Origin: Bdellovibrionales bacterium
GTDB lineage: Bacteria > Bdellovibrionota > Bdellovibrionia > Bdellovibrionales > JAEYZS01
DNA length: 43,052 nucleotides
Direction: 5' to 3'
Assembly (NCBI GenBank): GCA_031374125.1
Contig: JANMFM010000253.1
Location: 1 to 43,052, forward strand
Both the position numbers and the translations under genes were made by a program. This document shows, in pieces, positions 32,048 to 43,052 of the stretch. The notes below the pieces were generated by a model. That model was not told the DNA's origin and ran no database searches. It saw only the letters and a program-made list of their open reading frames with translations. Numbering within the stretch: the first letter of the stretch is position 1; every line of letters starts with the position of its first letter.

Positions 32048-34869
32048 ATCAGTGCCTCAACGCATTTTGGACAAATGCCTGGATGTTTAATAGATGATTT
32101 TAGATCGGTATTGTATGTCCAGCATCTCACGCACTTCTCTCCCTCAGCTTTTTTTGCTTCGATGTGGAGTTTGCCTTTTTTAAGATGCACTTGAGAAACA
32201 ATGAAAAATTCTAAAAGACTGTCTTTTAAAAGTTCTAAGACTTTCAATTCTTCACCTTCAGCTGTGATGATCAGCTGAGCCTCAAGGCCAGATCCAATCA
32301 CTTTATTTTTTCTGAGCTCTTCTAAGTTTTTCAGTGCTTCAGTTCTGATCGCTTGGAAAGTTTCAAAAGTTTTGATCACTTCAGGATTTACCCAAGTTTT
32401 ATTTGGTGTTGGGAATTTTTCTAAGAACACCGACGCTTTTTCTTTTCCCAGAGTGTGAGCATAGGTTTCTTCAGCCAAGAATGAAGCAATTGGTGCCAGC
32501 ATTTTTGCTAGGCTCGTAGTGATTTCATAAAGAGCCGTTTGCGCAGATCTTCTCAAATGACCATCGGTTTTTCTGACATAGAGTCTATCTTTTAAAATAT
32601 CCAAGTAGAATGCAGAAAGATCCACGGTCACAAAGTTATTGATCAAATGATAGATCTTGTAGAATTCATACTTCTCGTAACCTTCGGTTACGTTTTCAAT
32701 AAGCGTATTGAGCTTTGCAAGCGCCCATTGATCAAGAGAGGTTAAATCTTTATAGGGAAGAGCATCTTTTTTGTGATCATAATCGGAAAGATTTCCAAGA
32801 AGGAATCGGATTGTGTTTCTAAGGCGTCTGTAAGTTTCTGTGATTCTTGCGATACCTTCTGGATTGCAAGACAAATCATTGGCGTAATCTTCATGTGTGG
32901 CCCAGAGTCTAAGAATGTCAGATCCGCTATTCTTGATCACATCCATTGGATCGACAACGTTTCCTAAGCTCTTACTCATTTTTTGACCTTTAGAAAACAT
33001 CACGAATCCGTGAGTGAGGACAGTCTTAAATGGAGCAATTCCTTCGGCAGCGACAGAGGCGAGGAGAGAAGTGTGGAACCAACCTCTGTGTTGATCCGAA
33101 CCTTCGAGATACAAATCTGCCGGTTGGGTGAGACCCGTACGTTTTTTCTGAACCGCGGCCCAGCAAACTCCACTATCAAACCAAACATCAAGAATATCTC
33201 TACCTTTTTCGAATTCAGCTTTTCCGCACTTTTCACATTTATGAGATCCCGCAAAAACTTTAATGTCTGTATCAAAGTAACCTTCGATGCCTGCACCACC
33301 TTTAGTATCAATTCGGTTAGCCTCAGTGCGATCCATGCTATCTGCAATTCTCATCATAACATCTTCTTTTGCAAGAGGAGTCTGGCAAGCTTTGCAGTAC
33401 AATACTGGAATTGGAACACCCCAAAGTCTTTGACGAGAAACACACCAGTCTGGGCGATTCTCGATCATTGCAGAAATTCTTCTTTCGCCCCAAGAAGGAA
33501 CCCAGTTCACCTCTTTGATGGCGTTCAAAGATTTTTCGCGGATGGTGTGACCAGAATCTTTTAGATCCATTTTCAAGAACCACTGGGGAGTCGCTCTGTA
33601 AATCAACGGAGCTTTCGATCTCCAGCAATGTGGATAGCTATGTTCGATTTCACTGTGATGAAGGAGGTGCCCGGTTTCTTTGATAAGATCGAGAACAATT
33701 TTATTTCCTTCTTTGAGAACGTGTTTCCCTTGAAGGAATGCCGGAGCATCTAAATTATAAAAACCACCATCATCTACCGGAGATAAAATCGGAAGATGAT
33801 ATCTCATACCAACGTTGTAATCGTCGACACCGTGACCTGGAGCTGTATGCACGAGTCCTGTACCAGCTTCAAGTGTTACGTGATTTCCGAGAAGAATTTT
33901 TCCAGTTCTTTCGATGAAGGGATGCTTGTACTCAAGGTTTTCTAGATCTATGCCTTTTAAAGTTTTTGCAGGAGATAAAGATTTAAGAGTGATGCCGGTG
34001 TCTTTTTCGAAAGCTTCTTTAAGACCTCGAGCTACGACTACATAATCAGATTGATCATTGACTTGGGTTTCGTAAATTTCGTATTCAAACTCTGGGTGAA
34101 CAGTAACTGCTAAATTTGCAGGAAGAGTCCAAGGAGTTGTTGTCCAGATGACGAGATTTGTTTTTTTATGGGAATCGGGTACACCAAGATGTTTTAATAT
34201 TTCAAATTTTACGTAGATCGCTTGGCTCTTATAATTTTTGTATTCGACTTCGGCTTCAGCAAGCGCAGTTTTTAGAGCCCAACACCAGTAGACCGGTTTT
34301 GTACCGTGATAGAAGGCGCCAGTTTTCAGAATGTTTGCGAGAACTCGGACTTCTTCAGCTTCGTATTCTGGTTGTAGAGTCATGTATGGATTTTCCCAAT
34401 CCGCCATCACACCAATTCTCTTGAATTCTTCTCTCTGTATGCTCATCCACTTCGTAGCTTCTTCACGGCAAAGATTTCTAAACTGCTTATCAGTGAGATC
34501 GTTCCTTTTATCACCAAGAGCCTTTGTAACGACCAATTCAATTGGCAGACCATGGCAATCCCAGCCCGGAATGAATGGCGCTTTGTAGCCGCTCATATTT
34601 TTGTATTTGATCACGGTGTCTTTTAAAATTTTATTGAGAGCATGGCCAACGTGAATATGGCCGTTGGCGTACGGAGGACCATCGGGCATCGAGAAAGAAC
34701 CTTTCTCTGCATTGGAGTTCAGCATCTGGTTGTAGATATCTTGAGAGCGCCAGAATTCAATAAACTCAGGTTCCCTTTGATTGAGATTTCCCTTCATAGG
34801 GAAATCCGTTTTTGGCAAGTTGAGGGTGTCTTTATAGTTCACTGGCTCTGTGACTGGTTCTTTACTCAT
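32044..34869 (-). CDS. ileS: Isoleucine-tRNA ligase (type 1)
   Basis: DGPPYANG-HIHVGH, GWDCHGLP, WTTTPWT, EGSDQHRGWF, KMSKS, C-terminal zinc finger. Confidence 0.98.
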   Translation of the reverse strand: MSKEPVTEPVNYKDTLNLPKTDFPMKGNLNQREPEFIEFWRSQDIYNQMLNSNAEKGSFSMPDGPPYANGHIHVGHALNKILKDTVIKYKNMSGYKAPFIPGWDCHGLPIELVVTKALGDKRNDLTDKQFRNLCREEATKWMSIQREEFKRIGVMADWENPYMTLQPEYEAEEVRVLANILKTGAFYHGTKPVYWCWALKTALAEAEVEYKNYKSQAIYVKFEILKHLGVPDSHKKTNLVIWTTTPWTLPANLAVTVHPEFEYEIYETQVNDQSDYVVVARGLKEAFEKDTGITLKSLSPAKTLKGIDLENLEYKHPFIERTGKILLGNHVTLEAGTGLVHTAPGHGVDDYNVGMRYHLPILSPVDDGGFYNLDAPAFLQGKHVLKEGNKIVLDLIKETGHLLHHSEIEHSYPHCWRSKAPLIYRATPQWFLKMDLKDSGHTIREKSLNAIKEVNWVPSWGERRISAMIENRPDWCVSRQRLWGVPIPVLYCKACQTPLAKEDVMMRIADSMDRTEANRIDTKGGAGIEGYFDTDIKVFAGSHKCEKCGKAEFEKGRDILDVWFDSGVCWAAVQKKRTGLTQPADLYLEGSDQHRGWFHTSLLASVAAEGIAPFKTVLTHGFVMFSKGQKMSKSLGNVVDPMDVIKNSGSDILRLWATHEDYANDLSCNPEGIARITETYRRLRNTIRFLLGNLSDYDHKKDALPYKDLTSLDQWALAKLNTLIENVTEGYEKYEFYKIYHLINNFVTVDLSAFYLDILKDRLYVRKTDGHLRRSAQTALYEITTSLAKMLAPIASFLAEETYAHTLGKEKASVFLEKFPTPNKTWVNPEVIKTFETFQAIRTEALKNLEELRKNKVIGSGLEAQLIITAEGEELKVLELLKDSLLEFFIVSQVHLKKGKLHIEAKKAEGEKCVRCWTYNTDLKSSIKHPGICPKCVEALI

Positions 34870-34903
34870 GTTATCCTTGGTCGTATGCTTTAATGTAGGA
34901 ACT

Positions 34904-34933
34904 AATCTATTGAAATTAGAGCTTTAAAGTCAA
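34904..34933 (-). promoter_or_regulatory. Candidate sigma70 promoter of ileS-lspA-lgt-lgt
   Basis: Minus strand TTGACT-N18-TAGATT. Confidence 0.45.
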
Positions 34934-34949
34934 TGATCGGGACAGGGTT

Positions 34950-35561
34950 CTATGAGCGATTTGGGAAAATGGTCTTAAGTTTGTCATAACCGAGGGTTAT
35001 AAGCATCCTAACGACATCTGCATCTGATTCCATATTGAGTTCAGCCTTCACGGTATCGATGATGTTTTGAGATTTTTGATCTACAGATACACCAGTTTGA
35101 CGTCTTTCTGAGACTTTGAACTCAATGCTTCGCTCATCATAACGAGGTGGCGTAGGTGACTTCATAGGAGCTTCTTGCTCAAACTCAAACGCACGACTCA
35201 TATCAAAGTTTTGCGTGAAATCTGGAGCATCCGGTAAATTTTGTGGAACGGAGTTTTGTACGGGCTTAAGTGGTACTTGTGCTTTCAAGGTTTCTTTCTG
35301 TTTCTCAAATTGATTGAGTTCTGTTGCTAATGACTGAAGTTGATTTTTGAAATCTTTTGAACTGACGGGAGCAATGTTTTCTAGACGACCATCCCCTAAA
35401 GAGGAAACACCATTTCTTCTCGCTTGAAGATAAAGTGCGACAAGAGTTTCTTTTGTTGTCGCCATGTTTTTAACATACTCAGGCTGTGACTGTACCCAAA
35501 CGTACGCTTTCGCAACGTCTTCTCTAGTGTAAGCCTGTGGTGGTATATGATTGCTTGCCAT
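34950..35561 (-). CDS. Hypothetical cytoplasmic protein
   Basis: 203-aa ORF with ordered-looking termini (PPQAYTRE..., ESDADVVRMLITLGY) joined by a Pro/Gln-rich linker. Confidence 0.7.
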   Translation of the reverse strand: MASNHIPPQAYTREDVAKAYVWVQSQPEYVKNMATTKETLVALYLQARRNGVSSLGDGRLENIAPVSSKDFKNQLQSLATELNQFEKQKETLKAQVPLKPVQNSVPQNLPDAPDFTQNFDMSRAFEFEQEAPMKSPTPPRYDERSIEFKVSERRQTGVSVDQKSQNIIDTVKAELNMESDADVVRMLITLGYDKLKTIFPNRS

Positions 35562-35729
35562 GAAGGGTCAGAAACTAGCTGGATTTCTAAGACTCATCAA
35601 GATTTAAGTTCATGAGACCGCGCAATATTTTTTGATGTTAAAAATAAAAATTATTTTGCTCTGAAGTGAGACGAAAACAACAAACAGCGGACTAACAGAT
35701 TTATCCACAAAAGGTCGGGTACCTTTTGT

Positions 35730-37196
35730 CTACGTTGTGCTGATATAATCTCTTGGATTGATTCCGTATTTCTCGATTTTTCTCAAGAGAGTCTTCTTCG
35801 GAATATTTGCATGAAGAGCAGTTTGATTGATTCTACCTTTAAAGGTTTTCAAAGCTTTAATGATAAATTCTTTTTCGAAGAGCTCTTTGTGCTTGCCAAA
35901 ATCCAATTCACCATTCACTTCAACGCCAGCAACTTGAATTTCTTCTTCGCCTGCAACTGGAGCAATGGCTTCACCAGATTCTTCAGAGCTCTGAGCTAAT
36001 TTCTGAACATCTTCAAAAGAAATTCCGAGCGACTTTAATACTTTTTCAGGCAATGAATGAAGCGTGATCTTGTTTGAAGTTTCAATTACGAATGCATATT
36101 CCATGACGTTTTCTAATTCACGAATGTTTCCTGGCCAGCCGTACTTTTTAAAGCACGCCATAACCTCAGGAGAAATTCCAAGCATCTTTTTGCCATGAGC
36201 TTTATTGAATTTTGCTAAGAACATATTGAGTAAAGTTTCGATATCGTCTTTGCGATCTCTGAGGGGTGGTAAGAACATCGGGATGACGCTCAAACGGTAA
36301 AATAAATCTTCTCTGAAGGTTCCTTCTTCGATCATTTTTTCGAGAGGTTTGTTGGTAGCTGCAATGATTCTAACATTGGCTTCCAATTCTCTGTTCGCAC
36401 CAACTGGAGTGAACACTTTTTCTTGCAATACTCTCAAAAGTTTTGCTTGCATCAAAAGTGGCATATCTCCGATTTCATCTAGGAAGAGAGTTCCGCCTTC
36501 AGCGTATTGAAATTTACCGATTTTTCTTTGGTCAGCGCCTGTGAAAGAGCCTTTTTCGTGACCAAACAATTCAGATTCAAATAAATTTTCAGGAATTGCA
36601 GAGCAGTTGATTGCGACGAACTTTTGATCTTTTCTTGCAGAGTTAAAATGGATCGCTCTAGCCACGAGCTCTTTACCTGTTCCTGATTCACCACGGATCA
36701 AAACTGAAGTATCTACGTTTGAAAGTCTTGAAATAAGGCTAAACACCTTTTTCATTTCGATGTTTTTACCAACAAATTTTCTATCAGATTCAATAAGGAT
36801 AGGAGATGAGGCTGCTGCTGACGAAATCATGTCGTGAGCCTCGATCGATCTTTCTACGAGCTGGATCAACTCATCGCCTTTAACGGGCTTTGAAAGATAG
36901 TTGTAAGCGCCTTCTTTAACAGCAACAACAGCATCGTTGATGTTTGCGTAGGCAGTCATGATCAATACAATTGTTTGTGGGGAGAGTTCTTTGATTTTTT
37001 TAAGAGTTTCAAGACCGTTCAGGCGAGGCATATCTACGTCAAGTATAACGAGGTCGTATTGCTGAGATTCCATCTTTTCAATAGCATGCATACCGTCTAC
37101 AGCATCATCGACTGTGAATCTGCCTGAGTTCCTCAGTGTAGAGCTGACCGCTAATCTTAAACCAGCGTCGTCATCCGCTACTAATACCTTCAACAT
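35730..37196 (-). CDS. NtrC-family sigma54-dependent response regulator (REC-AAA+-HTH)
   Basis: VLVADDD, LVILDVDMP, SKP; GESGTGKE, GSFTGA, WPGNIRELEN; C-terminal HTH. RBS GGAGGG favours ATG 37196. Confidence 0.95.
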   Translation of the reverse strand: MLKVLVADDDAGLRLAVSSTLRNSGRFTVDDAVDGMHAIEKMESQQYDLVILDVDMPRLNGLETLKKIKELSPQTIVLIMTAYANINDAVVAVKEGAYNYLSKPVKGDELIQLVERSIEAHDMISSAAASSPILIESDRKFVGKNIEMKKVFSLISRLSNVDTSVLIRGESGTGKELVARAIHFNSARKDQKFVAINCSAIPENLFESELFGHEKGSFTGADQRKIGKFQYAEGGTLFLDEIGDMPLLMQAKLLRVLQEKVFTPVGANRELEANVRIIAATNKPLEKMIEEGTFREDLFYRLSVIPMFLPPLRDRKDDIETLLNMFLAKFNKAHGKKMLGISPEVMACFKKYGWPGNIRELENVMEYAFVIETSNKITLHSLPEKVLKSLGISFEDVQKLAQSSEESGEAIAPVAGEEEIQVAGVEVNGELDFGKHKELFEKEFIIKALKTFKGRINQTALHANIPKKTLLRKIEKYGINPRDYISTT

Positions 37197-37216
37197 TTTC
37201 CCTCCGAACATCGGTA

Positions 37217-39088
37217 TCATAATCTTCCCCCTAATGATCCATCACTGTTCCCACTTTGATGCTGGCCACTTTGATCCATTGGTAGATTCACCGTAAAGGT
37301 TGAACCTTGCTGAGGAAGACTCTCAACAGTTATCTGTCCTTTATGCAGCTCTACAAAATATTTTGCAAGGTACAAACCTAGGCCTGACCCCTTAATAGGT
37401 GAATTTTTCACATGTTTAGTACGATAGAACTTTGTAAATATGTGTCTAATTTCGTTCTCCGTGATGCCAATTCCTTGGTCAGCGACTTGAACGATAATTT
37501 GCCCTTCATCTTCTTCGGACGTCACAAGGATTCTGGAGTTCGTTGGCGAGTACTTAATGGCATTTTCAATGAGGTTCGAGAACACTTGCTTCATCAGATC
37601 AGCATCGATTTTTACTGAGAAAAGAGTATCGAGCTCAGGAATGATCTCGATGTTTTTTTGTTGAGCAAGGTATTCATATTTTTTGATTGTATCTTCCAAG
37701 ATGCGATTGATGTCGCGAGATTGAAGATTCAATTTAATTTTTTGCGATTCCACTCGGGATAAATCAAGAATAGAGCTGATGAATTCAGTGAGTTCTTCCG
37801 CAGATTTTCTGATTGTTTGAACCGCAGTCTTTTGCTCGGGTTCAAAATTTTCGGAATTCGCGAGAGCTATGTCGGCCATACCTTGAATTCTCGCAAGTGG
37901 GGTCTTGAGGTCATGAGACATCATGCTGAGGAAGTTGTTCTTAAGCTCTTCAACCTGGGTGAGGAGTTTGTTTTTTTCTCTAAGTTCCCAGAATTTTTTG
38001 TTTTCACGGATTAATCTGTAGGGAATAAAGAAATAGTAGCAAACAAATACAGCGATGAGGGGTTGAGCCATTCCAATTGCTAAGCCCGAGAATGTGAAGA
38101 GTAAGCTTGAAAAAATAAAATAGCTAACAACTAAGCCAAATATTGCGGTAATACCCATTGCTGGAGAAAGCATAAAAACCGCGAAGGTAGCAACTATAGA
38201 AAACAAAAACGTAACTGCTTTGTTTAAGAGAATTTGAGTCTTAATAATTCCATTATTTTCTAAGAAAGTTTTAATTACATGTGCATGAGCTTCAAGCTTA
38301 GTCATTCCGAGTAGATCGCGAGTGTACGGTGTTTTAATATAATAAGCTGGCGTAAATTTATCGTCATAGCCAATTAATACTATTCTATCTGTAAATGTGT
38401 TTTTCTCAAAAGAACCATTTTTAATTTCAGAGAGACTGTTTGCTATAAATGTGTGTGGTCTTTGATAATTAATATTTGTTTGTAGAGCTTCTCTAAATTC
38501 AAAAGTTCCGCGATACTTATGCGGGTCTCTTATTCCGTTATAAAAAGATGCTATATAAGGTTGAAGTAATGTCTGTCCTTGATAGTAAATCAAAGCGCGC
38601 CTAGATACATCATCACCGGCAAAGTTATTTTTGTCGTAAGTAATAACTCCGGGCACACTTTTGATTTTGTCATAAGGTTTTGGCAAAACAAGTTGGCTCT
38701 CTTGGCCAGCAATCACAACATCATCATAAATAACTAAAAAATTTTTGAATTTGGTTGTTAAGGCTGCAAACTCTGCTTTTTGATCCGCAGTACCTTGAAT
38801 GTTTTGAATTGGAAATGTGTAAACAACATAGTTCGGATTTTCCGCTAATAATAAAGTTAGAAATTTATTATGAGCAGCTAAGTTGTTGTCTTGGTTTTGA
38901 ATTGTGTTTTGATCAATAGCGATTGTTTTGATAAGGTCTGAGCCTGAACTAAAAGGTCGCAGTCGAAATCTTGCGTCATATAAAAGTGATTCGACATAAT
39001 GAAAATCGAATGAGCTAACAATTAGAGCTATTCCTAATGCCAAAGCTAAACTCAATATTGAAATGGCAAAGTTTCGCTTTTGGGACAT
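37217..39088 (-). CDS. CHASE2-domain sensor histidine kinase
   Basis: N-terminal TM; CHASE2-like DDVSRR and RIVLIG...KTPY...MTKLEAHAH; three TMs; SHDLKTPL; NLIENAIKY, DQGIG, GSGLGL. Confidence 0.88.
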   Translation of the reverse strand: MSQKRNFAISILSLALALGIALIVSSFDFHYVESLLYDARFRLRPFSSGSDLIKTIAIDQNTIQNQDNNLAAHNKFLTLLLAENPNYVVYTFPIQNIQGTADQKAEFAALTTKFKNFLVIYDDVVIAGQESQLVLPKPYDKIKSVPGVITYDKNNFAGDDVSRRALIYYQGQTLLQPYIASFYNGIRDPHKYRGTFEFREALQTNINYQRPHTFIANSLSEIKNGSFEKNTFTDRIVLIGYDDKFTPAYYIKTPYTRDLLGMTKLEAHAHVIKTFLENNGIIKTQILLNKAVTFLFSIVATFAVFMLSPAMGITAIFGLVVSYFIFSSLLFTFSGLAIGMAQPLIAVFVCYYFFIPYRLIRENKKFWELREKNKLLTQVEELKNNFLSMMSHDLKTPLARIQGMADIALANSENFEPEQKTAVQTIRKSAEELTEFISSILDLSRVESQKIKLNLQSRDINRILEDTIKKYEYLAQQKNIEIIPELDTLFSVKIDADLMKQVFSNLIENAIKYSPTNSRILVTSEEDEGQIIVQVADQGIGITENEIRHIFTKFYRTKHVKNSPIKGSGLGLYLAKYFVELHKGQITVESLPQQGSTFTVNLPMDQSGQHQSGNSDGSLGGRL

Positions 39089-39120
39089 GTTACCTCTACA
39101 TAAAGTTTTATTAGAAACGA

Positions 39121-39234
39121 TTAATAAAGATCCTGTGGACCTGATCTCACAATTGCAGTTTGTGTTTTATTAAAAGAGACACTCTTAACTTTTCTTTTTA
39201 ACTTCGTAATCATAGCTCTAATCTCCTTAATCAT
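39121..39234 (-). CDS. Unannotated 37-aa peptide, candidate signal/RiPP precursor
   Basis: MIKEIRAMITKLKRKVKSVSFNKTQTAIVRSGPQDLY. AGGAG lies 6 nt before ATG 39234; a second in-frame ATG (39213) has its own AAGGAG; a sigma54 promoter lies just upstream. Confidence 0.7.
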   Translation of the reverse strand: MIKEIRAMITKLKRKVKSVSFNKTQTAIVRSGPQDLY

Positions 39235-39282
39235 TTGAAACTCCTAGGATGAATGATTTTTTTTGATACCAAGACTTACAAT

Positions 39283-39300
39283 TAGCAATAACTCTGCCAA
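39283..39300 (-). promoter_or_regulatory. Sigma54 promoter driving peptide, kinase and regulator
   Basis: Minus strand TTGGCAGAGTTATTGCTA with exact GG-N10-GC spacing and near-consensus -24 and -12 elements. Confidence 0.8.
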
Positions 39301-39425
39301 TCTTGTGGGCCTAATGTTGTCTATGCAATATTAGTAAATTCATATACTTAATGCATCAAGTTATTTATAAGCATATAAAATCAGTGAGAAATTCGGTGCC
39401 CATTTGGGAATGAATAAATAAGTAA

Positions 39426-39440
39426 GTGTCTGACTGACAC
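39426..39440. promoter_or_regulatory. Candidate enhancer palindrome for the peptide promoter
   Basis: GTGTC-TGACT-GACAC, about 125 bp upstream of the -24 element, with AT-rich intervening DNA. Confidence 0.45.
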
Positions 39441-39511
39441 CAAAACATTTATCTTTGAATACTCTCTCCATGGAAAAAATTCAGATTATGTCCATAAAAC
39501 TTACGATTAAT

Positions 39512-41746
39512 TTATATGGATTTAATCTGGATCTTATCAAGGTCTTTTTTACCAAAAACCTGTGCATTTAGGTCCTTAGCGATTTTAAGAATATCTTCGT
39601 TCGAAGATAAGGTGGTGCATAAAAAAGCATTAAATAAATATTTAGCGCCCTTGTCTGTGGTCATTTGAATTACATCAAACCCTGTTTCGTCTTCGTTTTC
39701 AAAAATCATGTCAGTAATAATCGTATACGGTTGTTCATTGAATAAATTGAATGATCCTTTATCCATTTCATATTTAAAATTTTTAAATGATTCGAAAGAA
39801 ATAAAATTCAATTGGTTATCCTTAAATATTTTTTCCCACAGACTTCTCGTTTCGAAAACATCTTCTATGAGAATTATATTTTTCGCAGTATTGATTTCAA
39901 GGGTTCGTAAATTTGACTTCAGTAAGATAATCTTAAAAATTGTTTTGCCAGGAGTAGACGTGACCAGAGTAATATCTCCTCCGGTTTTCAATAAGGCCTC
40001 TTTCGCTTGAGATAATCCAATTCCAGTTCCAGATTTTTTATCGTATGTGAATCCTAAATCAAAAATATTCTTTTGGATCTCTGAGGGAATGCCTTTGCCT
40101 GTGTCTTCAATGAATATTTGAACACTATCTGGCTCATCAACAACTTCGATATTAATTTTCCCTATAAAACTCATTGCTTCGATGGAGTTGTTAAGAATAT
40201 TTGTTAAGGCTCTTTCAATTTCAGTTTGATCTACTGGAATTAATATATTTTGACAATCATGCTTCAGATGAATGTGAATATTAGAGTGTGTTTGCTTGTA
40301 AGTATTTACTAATTCATTGAGGGTTGAAATTATATCTACAGAAATAGGTTCGTGGACTGTTTCAAACGCTCCAGATTTAAATTTTTTAAGCAATGAGTCT
40401 GCGATATTGTTTATACGAGTAATGGTTTTATCCAAAAGTTTTTGAGCGTCAGGGTTCATTTCAGTGCGAGAAACCATTTTAACTGTTTCGAGAGCCATTA
40501 TTGGGGATTTAATATCGTGAGCTAATTGTGTTGCGATTCGAAAGCCGAGGTCGGCTTTTGCTGATTTTGCATTGATCTTCACTTTATTGATAGCTTTTTC
40601 TTTCTCTTCTTTTGCCAGGAAGAAGTTTTTATCATTTTGTCTCGCAAGGCGGAGAAAAGCGAATGGTATTGTAAGATATTGAAGTAAGAACAGCATCAAT
40701 AATGGATGAGTAGTATCAAGCTGCCAGCTAGTAATTCCAAAAATTAGTAATGGCAATAATATTATAAAAAAGAGTTGTCCAAAGCTAAATAAAAACAGAT
40801 TTTTAGCAGGTAATCTGCTGGCTATGCAAATAAAGAAAAATAAATTAAAAAATGTCCAAATATAGTTATAAGTGACAGGTGGGACTTTTGGATTGTCTTT
40901 TTGAATTAGAGTATCGAATCCGTTTGCGATAGCCTCGTTGACCATCATAGCAAAAACAGAGTGATCATATGGAATTTTTCTATAATCAAACAGATCATCT
41001 TTGGCATTTAAACTTACAATTACAATACTATCTTTGAAAAATGTAGGAGAGATTAGCGCAACATCATCAGCATTATTAACATTTATAGACTCATAACTAT
41101 CTTTTTTGGAGAATCTAGCTTTTACTGCCTCTCGACCATTTTGAAAAAAAGTTCCTTCATACTTTGGGCTTCCAATCACAAGTGTTTGAATAGATTCATT
41201 TGGATTATAATCCACTAGTATTCTTCGCACGACTCCATCCATTGCGCCAGAGACAGTCTCTGTTCCAATTCCTGGGGAGGTTATTCGTAGCTTCGATAGA
41301 GTGGGGTGTTTGTAGACTAAGCTTTGGAATAATGGAAAAGTATTTGGTATATGAAAGAAAACATTTTTATATTTTTTCGTGAATTCTACAAAGTCTGCGA
41401 TGGGATAATCTTTTTCATTGGTGAGTAGATAAAGCGGGTCGTAGGCATATGCGACAATTTTGGCGCCACTACTTACGGCGCTTTCTATGATTGCTTTGTG
41501 AGTTTTGAGGCTAAAATTATGAAAGTAGAGAGAGCTTTTTGAATTTTTCTCAGTAGGCGTAAGATTTATAAGTTTTATATTAGCGCTAGGCGATGTTCTT
41601 TTGAACACAGTGACATGAAAATCATAAAAGAATGCATCAATGCGTGGAAAATCAAATTTCCAAATAACGGCGGTAAGGGCCAAAGAAATTAAAAGATTTA
41701 TGATAATAAAAAGTATAAGTTTGTTTTTTGAATTAAGGCTAGGCAT
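39512..41746 (-). CDS. Second CHASE2 sensor histidine kinase with C-terminal receiver-like domain
   Basis: DGVVRR CHASE2 motif; TM bundle; AHDIKSP; NILNNSIEA, DTGKG, GTGIGL; receiver-like IILIED...IITDM. Confidence 0.82.
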   Translation of the reverse strand: MPSLNSKNKLILFIIINLLISLALTAVIWKFDFPRIDAFFYDFHVTVFKRTSPSANIKLINLTPTEKNSKSSLYFHNFSLKTHKAIIESAVSSGAKIVAYAYDPLYLLTNEKDYPIADFVEFTKKYKNVFFHIPNTFPLFQSLVYKHPTLSKLRITSPGIGTETVSGAMDGVVRRILVDYNPNESIQTLVIGSPKYEGTFFQNGREAVKARFSKKDSYESINVNNADDVALISPTFFKDSIVIVSLNAKDDLFDYRKIPYDHSVFAMMVNEAIANGFDTLIQKDNPKVPPVTYNYIWTFFNLFFFICIASRLPAKNLFLFSFGQLFFIILLPLLIFGITSWQLDTTHPLLMLFLLQYLTIPFAFLRLARQNDKNFFLAKEEKEKAINKVKINAKSAKADLGFRIATQLAHDIKSPIMALETVKMVSRTEMNPDAQKLLDKTITRINNIADSLLKKFKSGAFETVHEPISVDIISTLNELVNTYKQTHSNIHIHLKHDCQNILIPVDQTEIERALTNILNNSIEAMSFIGKINIEVVDEPDSVQIFIEDTGKGIPSEIQKNIFDLGFTYDKKSGTGIGLSQAKEALLKTGGDITLVTSTPGKTIFKIILLKSNLRTLEINTAKNIILIEDVFETRSLWEKIFKDNQLNFISFESFKNFKYEMDKGSFNLFNEQPYTIITDMIFENEDETGFDVIQMTTDKGAKYLFNAFLCTTLSSNEDILKIAKDLNAQVFGKKDLDKIQIKSI

Positions 41747-41807
41747 ACTTAAAAGTAATATTAAATGGTTAAATTGAAAAGAATTAAATAATAATTGTGG
41801 ATGTCAG

Positions 41808-42926
41808 ATGAACTTATTCGGATTTGAATTGTACCAAAAAGCAGGATCAGCGGAAATCAATTATCATAAAGGCTGGTCTTGGAAGCCATCCAGATTGGAA
41901 TTAATTAAAAATCCCAAGAAATTATTAAATTTTAAAAGCACTATGTATACGTTCTTGCCCCAAAAATTTTCCAAAGGTTATATTCTAATTTTATCTAAAA
42001 AAAACACGGCCGTGGGAAGCTTGATTTCTGAGCTTAAAAAGGCAAAGAAGCCATTCCTTTACCTTAATTGGGAGGAGTTAATAGGTGAGGGTATTGTAGA
42101 ATACAATTCAGCTGAAAAAAAATATTTAATCAAATACAAAAATAGCTCTTTCGATTTATCAAAGGTGAAGTCAATTTATTGCGACTATACTAATATTTCT
42201 GAGGTTTTTCATTTTAAAAGATCTAAGTTTTCCAATAAAGAAAAAGTTTTTTTAAGTAGGTGGATAGAGGCTTTGCAAATACTAGAGTATATTCTCAAAG
42301 AAAAAAAATGGTATCCTGCTAAACCCTCCCAAATGAGATATGAGTCGCAAAATAAATTTGGGGAACTTGTTGTGGCCCAAAAGTTAGGAATAAAAGTTCC
42401 GAAAATGATTTATACAAATGATCCGAGAGAGGCACAGAAATTTTTAAAAAATACTCCTTCTATAATAAAAGAATCAGGACTAAAGTTTTTTGAAGATTCA
42501 AAAGGGAATATTCAGATTTTTAAATCAAAAAAAATTGAATTTAATAATAAGAAAATTTCTGACATCCAATCTTCCCCATGTTTTTTTCAGGAATTTATAA
42601 ATAAAAAATTTGATATTCGATCTACAATTGTAGGAAAAAAAGTCCTAAGTGTAAAAATTCAATCTCAAGATAATAAAAAATCTGCGTCTGATTGGCGAGG
42701 CAATGAACATCTAACACCGATGTCTTCATTTGAACTGCCAGCTGCTTTAGAAAAGAAACTGATCCAGCTTCAAAAAATACTAGGGTTTGAGCTATCTAGC
42801 TTTGATCTTGTCGTCGATGACAAGAATAATTATTTTCTTTTAGAAATGAATCGCCCAGGACAATGGCTATTTATGGAAGCTTTGGCAGGTGTTCCAATTT
42901 CAAAAACCTTAGCTTCTAATCTTTAA
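41808..42926 (+). CDS. MvdC/MvdD-like (RimK superfamily) ATP-grasp peptide maturase
   Basis: NKxxxL..A..LG..VP, FFQEFINKKFDIRSTIVG, IQSQ...DWR and FDL...YFLLEMNRPGQWLFME match graspetide synthetase motifs. Confidence 0.8.
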   Translation: MNLFGFELYQKAGSAEINYHKGWSWKPSRLELIKNPKKLLNFKSTMYTFLPQKFSKGYILILSKKNTAVGSLISELKKAKKPFLYLNWEELIGEGIVEYNSAEKKYLIKYKNSSFDLSKVKSIYCDYTNISEVFHFKRSKFSNKEKVFLSRWIEALQILEYILKEKKWYPAKPSQMRYESQNKFGELVVAQKLGIKVPKMIYTNDPREAQKFLKNTPSIIKESGLKFFEDSKGNIQIFKSKKIEFNNKKISDIQSSPCFFQEFINKKFDIRSTIVGKKVLSVKIQSQDNKKSASDWRGNEHLTPMSSFELPAALEKKLIQLQKILGFELSSFDLVVDDKNNYFLLEMNRPGQWLFMEALAGVPISKTLASNL

Positions 42927-43052
42927 AGATCAGTTGAATAGGTTCCAGTGGGCGCTTTTCGTCTTCTGGGACGTTCATGGCTTTTTGGTCTTCGACTGAG
43001 ATTTCTCTCGCTTCTGTATCTTCCGGTAATTCGAAATCCACTGCGGGTAAGT
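42916..43052 (-). CDS. Acidic C-terminal fragment of a gene entering from beyond the window
   Basis: Open frame ...LPAVDFELPEDTEAREISVEDQKAMNVPEDEKRPLEPIQLIFKD*, convergent with and slightly overlapping the ATP-grasp gene. Confidence 0.45.
   Translation of the reverse strand, partial: LPAVDFELPEDTEAREISVEDQKAMNVPEDEKRPLEPIQLIFKD

Follow-up and report, generated by a model that had tools for sequence, protein, structure and literature searches.

What is encoded by a short open reading frame (ORF) that lies just upstream of a CHASE2 histidine kinase gene in an uncultured relative of Bdellovibrio (order Bdellovibrionales), and what might its product do? The ORF occupies positions 39121..39234 (minus strand) of a 43,052-nucleotide stretch of DNA (contig JANMFM010000253.1 of assembly GCA_031374125.1), referred to below as the window. 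It was singled out by a first-pass annotation made from the sequence alone, which regarded it as a candidate precursor of a minimal and atypical graspetide, that is, of a peptide ring-closed by an ATP-grasp ligase. We propose that the ORF encodes a signal peptide that is cyclised by an ATP-grasp ligase encoded nearby and sensed by the CHASE2 kinase, a reading to which we assign a probability of about 0.5. The existence and conservation of the gene are well supported by sequence comparison, its proposed function less firmly.

A short gene conserved in front of a CHASE2 kinase

The ORF can be read from either of two start codons. From the first (ATG1, at 39234) it specifies 37 amino acids, MIKEIRAMITKLKRKVKSVSFNKTQTAIVRSGPQDLY in the ORF listing, and from the second (Met8, at 39213) 30 amino acids, the stop codon being located at 39121-39123. 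Both starts are preceded by a Shine-Dalgarno (SD) sequence read directly in the minus strand, AGGAG at 39241..39245 for ATG1 (spacer of 6 nucleotides) and AAGGAG at 39223-39228 for Met8 (spacer of 9 nucleotides), as the first-pass annotation had described. Its residue numbering also holds: the peptide carries K23, T24, T26, R30, S31, G32, P33, Q34, D35, L36 and Y37, and its only acidic residues are one Glu (E4) and one Asp (D35), the latter being the sole acid after E4. We propose a leader comprising approximately residues 8-22 and a core comprising approximately residues 23-37 (39124-39168, minus strand), in which K23, T24, T26 and S31 are present as potential side-chain donors and D35 as an acceptor. 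The peptide indeed has neither the PFFARFL motif of microviridin leaders nor a repeated core, and it has no tricyclic core. It has no Pfam match at E ≤ 0.01 and no NCBIfam match at E ≤ 0.1, the form starting at Met8 has no NCBIfam match at E ≤ 10, and the sole match in an Rfam scan of 38000..43052 is a snoRNA at chance level (E 0.74).

Near-full-length counterparts of the kinase, here called HK1, were found in 26 of the 40 related genomes searched (42-75% identity), and the DNA preceding HK1 was read in the first 19 of these counterparts and then in wider stretches. With the genome of the window denoted G000 and its relatives G001-G006, G013 and G016, a counterpart of the ATP-grasp gene is present in nine of the 384 genomes of the order, i.e. 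in all seven members of the window's family and in G016 and G013, and these are exactly the genomes with the type of peptide described here. Eight loci were readable (G000-G005, G016 and G013); G006 was left out, its contigs ending at the locus, and the sensor half of HK1 was not found in this genome, which is 96% complete. Each of the eight loci contains an SD-preceded ORF of 25-44 amino acids on the HK1 strand that ends 24-97 nucleotides before HK1 (32 nucleotides from stop codon to ATG in the window). The frame is intact in all of them, so that the disruption in close relatives considered by the first-pass annotation did not occur. All eight peptides have a Lys-rich head, lack Cys and bear Asp or Glu among their last one to four residues, their tails being SGPQDLY in the window, SGPQDMY in G002, TSPSEYF in G004, TSPEDIF in G001, SKPHDIT in G005, KKPTDHA in G003, TNPASD in G016 and SGLKAD in G013. 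The start Met of the G002 ORF aligns with Met8 of the window peptide. What is conserved is the position, the size, the SD site, a Lys-rich motif of approximately L-K-x-K-I/V-K-K and the acidic tail.

These features are hard to obtain by chance. When each of the eight orthologous regions was subjected to 1000 mononucleotide shuffles, an SD-preceded ORF of at least 25 amino acids appeared in 1.6-8.1% of them, and one that was in addition free of Cys, rich in Lys/Arg at its head and acidic at its tail in 0-1 of 1000, features that were, however, picked after the data had been seen. Differences at codon positions 1/2/3 number 7/10/15 between G000 and G002 and 4/8/13 between G004 and G001, i.e. with an excess at the third position. 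A profile of the eight peptides searched against 1.84 billion representative sequences retrieved three proteins at E ≤ 0.001, none of which carries a name: the G003 peptide, a new variant ending in TSPEDVF, and a protein of 38 amino acids (P0003) that is identical to the window peptide at 30 of 37 positions (81%), aligning from Met1 across all 37 residues. P0003 keeps K23, T24, T26, S31 and D35, with Pro33 replaced by Ala and Arg30 by Lys. The exact 37-residue sequence of the window is absent from a collection of 15 billion proteins. When profiles leaving out one peptide class at a time were ranked among 1253 small ORFs, those of G002 (E 0.0066) and of G001 (E 3.5e-6) headed the ORFs that had not been used for training, the others ranking lower (see below). 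We regard it as nearly certain that the ORF is a real gene.

The first-pass annotation had also asked for a conserved pair of donor and acceptor residues. S31 and D35 are both unchanged in the two closest variants, G002 and P0003, and in the two other peptide classes (defined below) a Ser, Thr or Lys sits four residues ahead of Asp or Glu. This arrangement, whose weight is reduced by the composition of the peptides, is found in six of the eight peptides as well as in P0003.

An ATP-grasp ligase as the probable modifying enzyme

The proposed modifying enzyme is a 372-residue ATP-grasp ligase of the graspetide-maturase kind, encoded at 41808..42926 on the plus strand and identified as such by family, Protein Data Bank (PDB) and model evidence. 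Its sequence matches in the PDB are graspetide ligases in six of six cases, namely CdnC (E 3.9e-22), MdnC, AMdnB, MdnB, 9bou and PsnB. The best matches in NCBIfam are the ribosomal peptide maturase models TIGR04187, MvdD and MvdC (E 3.6e-36 to 1.5e-30), with scores far below the curated cut-offs (124.9 versus 350 bits, and for the MvdC and MvdD equivalog models 106-120 versus 425-475 bits). The nine orthologs have E145, F148 and W152 as invariant residues and LEMNRPG (residues 345-351) as an invariant segment, the counterpart of the E-x-N of CdnC in the alignment.

The ATP-grasp gene and the peptide gene are 2.6 kb apart in the window, with the gene of a second kinase (HK2) between them, as is also the case in G002. 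In G003, G004, G005 and G016 the two genes are directly adjacent and divergent, the contigs of G001 and G006 end at this place, and in G013 the ATP-grasp gene is on another contig, beside a gene for a PBP (penicillin-binding protein). No other SD-preceded small ORF was found by the ATP-grasp gene in the loci read.

The complex of enzyme and peptide was modelled with each partner supplied as an alignment and scored as the median of three runs. It reached 0.64, compared with 0.01 for the best control; a score this high was obtained for 58 of 80 solved complexes and for 2 of 110 mismatched pairs. At least 72% of the contacts are common to the runs, and the pLDDT of the partner is at least 67. The leader residues 9-21 are placed on residues 129-149 and 89-93 of the enzyme, around the invariant E145, F148 and W152, and the core residues 25-37 by residues 176-181, 225-237, 297-300 and 348-358 and the invariant EMNRPG (346-351). 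The model thus supports binding of the peptide to the ligase, as a prediction. We consider it likely that the peptide is a substrate of this enzyme, which probably closes a ring in it. The graspetide reading of the first-pass annotation has accordingly gained a conserved gene, a ligase of the appropriate type in the locus and a predicted complex, while the ester itself, placed by that annotation between S31 and D35, stays a proposal.

A metagenome scan with the ATP-grasp alignment, which employed a single peptide pattern, yielded three loci: the G016 locus again, one contig of 1.4 kb and one unrelated high-GC ATP-grasp gene.

A hypervariable block joins enzyme, peptide and sensor

HK1 (37217..39088, minus strand) is a protein of 623 amino acids with CHASE2, HisKA and HATPase_c domains. 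Its first approximately 324 residues (38116..39088), comprising the first transmembrane segment (TM1), the periplasmic CHASE2 domain and a membrane bundle, constitute a hypervariable sensor half, and the remainder with HisKA and HATPase_c (37217..38115) a conserved kinase half. The contrast is best seen between G000 and G004. Their DNA is 95.4% identical over 32672-38115, i.e. from the IleRS gene to the middle of the HK1 gene, and from 38115 to 42201 blastn finds no match except a 46-nucleotide piece at 85% (41874-41918). Identity is 54-71% from 42201 through the ATP-grasp gene, and returns to 93% from 42908, at the end of the PBP gene. At the protein level the regulator encoded after HK1 is 99% identical and the ATP-grasp ligase 52%; within HK1, identity is 18-46% over residues 1-300 and 95-100% over residues 351-623. 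A hypervariable, swap-prone block thus extends from the ATP-grasp gene over the peptide gene to about codon 324 of HK1, and the ATP-grasp gene within it is much more diverged than the flanks. The left edge of the block (around residue 324) falls in the membrane bundle that follows CHASE2, the hydrophobic segments of HK1 being residues 5-32 and 286-356.

At the other side, the last 137 nucleotides of the window belong to the 3' part of a PBP1A-like gene (within 42908..43052), which runs convergently to the ATP-grasp gene and forms the conserved right flank of the slot both in genomes with the ATP-grasp enzyme and in those with the radical-SAM enzyme described below.

Kinase half and regulator share one tree across the seven genomes compared (Mantel r = 0.99), and in each pair of genomes divergence has proceeded faster in the sensor half of HK1 than in its kinase half. 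Three pairs of sensor halves stand out by their similarity, G000-G002 (65%), G001-G004 (68%) and G003-G005 (56%, across genera), all other pairs being 27-46% identical. The same three pairs are recovered as three peptide classes, A (G000/G002), B (G004/G001) and C (G003/G005), and this pairing departs from the regulator tree and does not follow the species tree. Distances between peptides correlate with those between sensors (Mantel r = 0.72, p = 0.007, p-values of this test being overstated here because the seven genomes are related) and with those between regulators at r = 0.51. The inclusion of the sensing half of the kinase in the block suggests, as far as sequences can indicate, a strain-specific peptide signal.

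The probable kinase operon and its promoter motif

The gene following HK1 encodes a response regulator of the sigma-54 activator type (REC, Sigma54_activat and HTH_8 domains; 35730..37220, minus strand) and overlaps the HK1 stop codon. Upstream of the peptide gene there is a putative sigma-54 type -24/-12 element, TGGCAGAGTTATTGCT (39284..39299, minus strand), located 86 nucleotides before the ATG of Met8. It is the single match to TGGCA-N6-TTGCW in the whole window; the motif alone is not significant, as at least one match occurs in 27 of 100 shuffles. Such an element is, however, present 44-86 nucleotides before the peptide ATG in six of the eight loci, which have no DNA similarity there, and versions with one mismatch and with the GG-GC spacing kept were recognised by eye in G013 and G016.

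The peptide gene appears to begin its own transcription unit, since a terminator-like hairpin at 39425..39441 (minus strand, from a consensus scan only) ends the upstream kinase gene. The peptide gene, HK1 and the regulator gene would thus be co-transcribed as one operon. A sigma-54 dependent operon with a sigma-54 activator as its last gene would be wired for positive feedback, the activator acting at the 39284..39299 promoter presumably being the regulator of the operon. The association with HK1, the promoter and the hypervariable block, which the first-pass annotation had not noticed, together point to signalling rather than to a merely minimal natural product.

Several further elements of the locus deserve mention. 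A weak terminator-like hairpin at 39128..39142 (minus strand; six pairs, a loop of three nucleotides and a T-rich tail) extends over the final codons of the peptide ORF; it could allow peptide transcripts to outnumber those of the kinase, or could be due to chance. The 203-residue protein encoded directly after the regulator gene (34950..35561, minus strand) has no Pfam or NCBIfam match, is kept at this place in loci of both the ATP-grasp and the radical-SAM type (31-98% identity) and may belong to the regulon. HK2 (39512..41746, minus strand) is a second CHASE2 histidine kinase, of 744 amino acids, which occupies the position between the ATP-grasp and peptide genes only in G000 and G002. The two proteins are 44% identical, and the C-terminal tail of HK2 is receiver-like, as a domain not called by Pfam. 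HK2 is divergent from HK1 in G013 (35% identity) and absent in G003, G004, G005 and G016. In G004, a short frame about 440 nucleotides before HK1 resembles by eye the last 19 residues of HK2, as if the gene had been deleted.

An apparent sister system with a radical-SAM enzyme

The slot before the same kinase is occupied by a radical-SAM/SPASM gene in 217 of the 384 genomes, none of which is among the nine with the ATP-grasp gene. Its best model is the PapB ranthipeptide maturase NF047865 (E 3.3e-44, below the cut-off). All 30 loci read show the same order: first the radical-SAM gene, next a Lys-rich ORF of 35-59 amino acids with an SD site in front of it, and then the HK1 ortholog. The peptides encoded by these ORFs have a motif resembling H-I-K-K-I/V and Cys within the last 12 residues, with tails such as GCIPVR, GCVPTGHD and CPEL. 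Seven of them searched have no NCBIfam match at E ≤ 10, and at this threshold two of the seven yielded stray Pfam matches (E 0.05 and 0.085) well below the cut-offs. The pairing of enzyme and tail is exclusive: acidic, Cys-free tails go with ATP-grasp, an enzyme of the ester/amide type, and Cys tails with radical-SAM, one of the thioether type. We view this match between tail chemistry and enzyme class as the strongest indirect argument that the ORFs encode substrates of the enzymes. The radical-SAM/Cys-peptide locus looks like a sister system of that in the window, and the Cys-type peptides look like an undescribed family of Bdellovibrio-type bacteria.

We do not claim that the two types of peptide share an ancestor, as a profile of the 30 Cys-type peptides recovers ATP-grasp-type peptides at the level of noise: among the 1253 small ORFs the best of them, from G002, ranks 4th (E 4.6) and the window peptide is outside the top 25. 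The K-I/V-K-K motif shared by both types may reflect composition. A sigma-54 site was found upstream of the radical-SAM gene in 10 of 28 loci and in 0 of 28 control regions, which is suggestive but not general.

Two further arrangements were noted. In G262 the radical-SAM gene is directly followed by two tandem Cys-type ORFs with tails GCVPVGIR and ECAPLGAS, which look like a duplicated precursor. In G038 and G030, which belong to one genus and have neither enzyme, a conserved frame of 19 amino acids that starts with TTG and ends in GPSCKGKTI lies 6 nucleotides before HK1; it could represent another peptide variant or shared ancestry.

A proposed cyclised autoinducer and its alternatives

The observations can be assembled into the following scheme. 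The Lys-rich N-terminal part of the peptide would dock on the ATP-grasp ligase, which would then close one side-chain ring in the core. The ring would most simply join the hydroxyl of Ser31 to the carboxyl of Asp35, because Asp35 is the sole acidic residue of the core. For removal of its leader and for export the peptide would rely on functions encoded outside the block, and once matured it would be sensed by the periplasmic CHASE2 domain of HK1. The sigma-54 activator would in turn raise the activity of the promoter of its own operon, creating an autoinducing loop, and the pairs of peptide and sensor would be strain-specific, i.e. would define pherotypes. That the peptide is the ligand of HK1 seems to us a matter of nearly even odds. 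The broader proposal of a strain-specific, ATP-grasp-cyclised CHASE2 autoinducer with a radical-SAM-made thioether sister signal in most of the order, in Bdellovibrio-type genomes too, is advanced more tentatively.

A number of points weigh against the proposed cyclised signal. Only nine genomes carry the system, all of them being metagenome bins and mutually related, and the block could co-vary merely because it is inherited as one piece. The ATP-grasp ligases do not sort by peptide class: that of G002 is 50% identical to its class mate in G000 and 61% to those of G001 and G004. Sequence similarity among the three peptide classes and the two outliers is faint, and in the leave-one-class-out rankings the window peptide came 26th (E 7.4), those of class C 9th and 16th and that of G016 39th, which places the likeness between classes at the edge of what can be detected. 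Because Ser, Thr and Lys abound in these peptides, little weight attaches to a donor at a constant offset; the offset to the acid differs in G016 and G013, and Pro33 is not essential to the family, being Ala in P0003. The peptide has no signal sequence, and no exporter or leader peptidase gene is present between the PBP and IleRS genes in any locus, the interval to which this search was confined. Solved complexes of such ligases with leaders exist, and the success of our model may partly reflect likeness to them.

Could the peptide be a graspetide with a different job, such as a microviridin-like protease inhibitor or an antagonist, that co-varies with the sensor simply because the two are swapped as neighbours? 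All that speaks for modification fits this view equally, the characterised graspetides, microviridins among them, inhibit proteases, and linkage within a contiguous block could by itself make the classes match. Yet the left edge of the block is located inside HK1, at the junction of the sensor and kinase halves, the faster divergence of the sensor half in every pair is the pattern expected of a receptor and its signal, and the peptide gene heads the operon of the kinase, not that of the enzyme. We therefore hold this possibility to be rather unlikely. We find it still less likely that the product is an unmodified small basic protein acting on the kinase or the membrane in the manner of the small regulators of PhoQ and EvgS in enterobacteria, with the ATP-grasp ligase having its substrate elsewhere. 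The peptide gene is joined to HK1 in all eight loci, whereas the ATP-grasp gene is on a different contig in G013 and separated by HK2 in G000 and G002, and the leader motifs known from graspetides (PMC8939145) are absent. This explanation is, however, countered by the lack of any hydrophobic stretch in the sequence suited to a membrane peptide, by the mutually exclusive pairing of peptide and enzyme types across the order, by the absence of another candidate substrate ORF by the enzyme and by the passing score of the complex model.

The ORF might also be an upstream leader whose translation tunes expression of the kinase and whose product has no role. Its end shortly before the kinase start in all loci and the weak hairpin over its 3' end would suit such a function, but the retention of the tail and the Lys-rich motif at the amino acid level, together with the third-position excess, speaks for a functional product, and the link with peptide-modifying enzymes would be left unexplained; we consider this alternative highly improbable. 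Finally, a short ORF, rich in Lys as A-rich DNA makes it and with an exact sequence missing from even the largest collection searched, may be suspected of having arisen by chance in AT-rich intergenic DNA. Given the occurrence of SD-preceded ORFs in all eight loci despite the lack of shared DNA similarity, and the near-complete failure of shuffled sequences to reproduce them, this least probable of the explanations appears already refuted as far as comparison shows. A cyclised signal peptide sensed by HK1 remains our preferred reading.

Comparison with known systems

The peptide resembles precursors of the graspetides (microviridin, chryseoviridin and plesiocin, made by the ligases MdnB/C, CdnC and PsnB) in combining a leader with a C-terminal core that contains Ser/Thr/Lys and Asp/Glu. 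Graspetide ligases are also the sole relatives of the window ATP-grasp protein in the PDB, and the model predicts a like placement, the leader being bound to the enzyme and the core located at its active site. Unlike graspetide precursors as characterised in PMC8939145, the window peptide has no PFFARFL, no P-h-h-x-h motif and no Gly-Gly site, the last of which occurs in about half of graspetide precursors (PMC8939145), and its leader is Lys-rich. Its genomic partner is a CHASE2 kinase operon, and the enzyme scores below the maturase cut-offs. At most one side-chain ring can be expected, because the core has a single acidic residue; a single ester bond was deemed 'theoretically possible' in only two clusters by Makarova et al. 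(PMC8939145). Outside its supplementary precursor tables, which could hold these genes, the accessible part of PMC8939145 names neither Bdellovibrio nor the CHASE domain.

The gene order of modifying enzyme, small peptide, sensor kinase and regulator recalls the ComQXPA competence pheromone locus of Bacillus subtilis, in which ComQ isoprenylates a Trp. The pattern of variability is similar as well: in ComQXPA conservation is poor for the enzyme, for the peptide and for the 5' end of the kinase gene, the remainder being conserved (PMC6334282). Here, the variable part comprises the ATP-grasp gene, the peptide ORF and HK1 up to codon ~324, and the conserved part the regulator and HK1 from its codon 351 onwards. 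The chemistry, the sensor domain, the type of regulator (a sigma-54 activator here) and the phylum are different. By analogy, the system described here may combine a graspetide pathway with a pheromone circuit of the ComQXPA kind.

The agr autoinducing peptides of staphylococci are like the proposed product in having a five-residue ring with a short tail, a hypervariable pair of peptide and sensor and an autoregulated operon. In agr, a thiolactone to the C-terminal carboxylate is made by the membrane protease AgrB. There is no AgrB-like gene here, and a cytoplasmic ligase would close the proposed ring as an ester of side chains, so that the likeness in ring size is no more than formal. The radical-SAM/SPASM thioether peptides (ranthipeptides, PapB type) share with the window peptide the slot before the same kinase, and differ in the enzyme class and the reactive residue.

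We found no description of this system in the literature on graspetides, CHASE2 kinases, Bdellovibrio, radical-SAM peptides and pherotypes, supplements not being covered, and no graspetide tied to signalling in the literature searched.

Possible implications for signalling in predatory bacteria

The ligands of CHASE2 are stated to be unknown (PMC10581220). If our proposal is true, these peptides would be the first candidate class of ligands for this common extracellular sensor module, and predatory bacteria would possess a widespread, hitherto unnoticed peptide quorum sensing in which the maturase was exchanged during evolution. The locus provides a testable pair, with the enzyme and a 30-residue peptide on one side and the kinase and the regulator on the other, and its natural specificity classes lend themselves to cross-tests. 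Even if the signalling part should fail, a single-ring graspetide with a Lys-rich leader would widen the range of the graspetide class. Since more than half of the Bdellovibrionales genomes searched have the other peptide-modifying system in front of the same kinase operon, such a finding would bear on how bacterial predators in general communicate from cell to cell.

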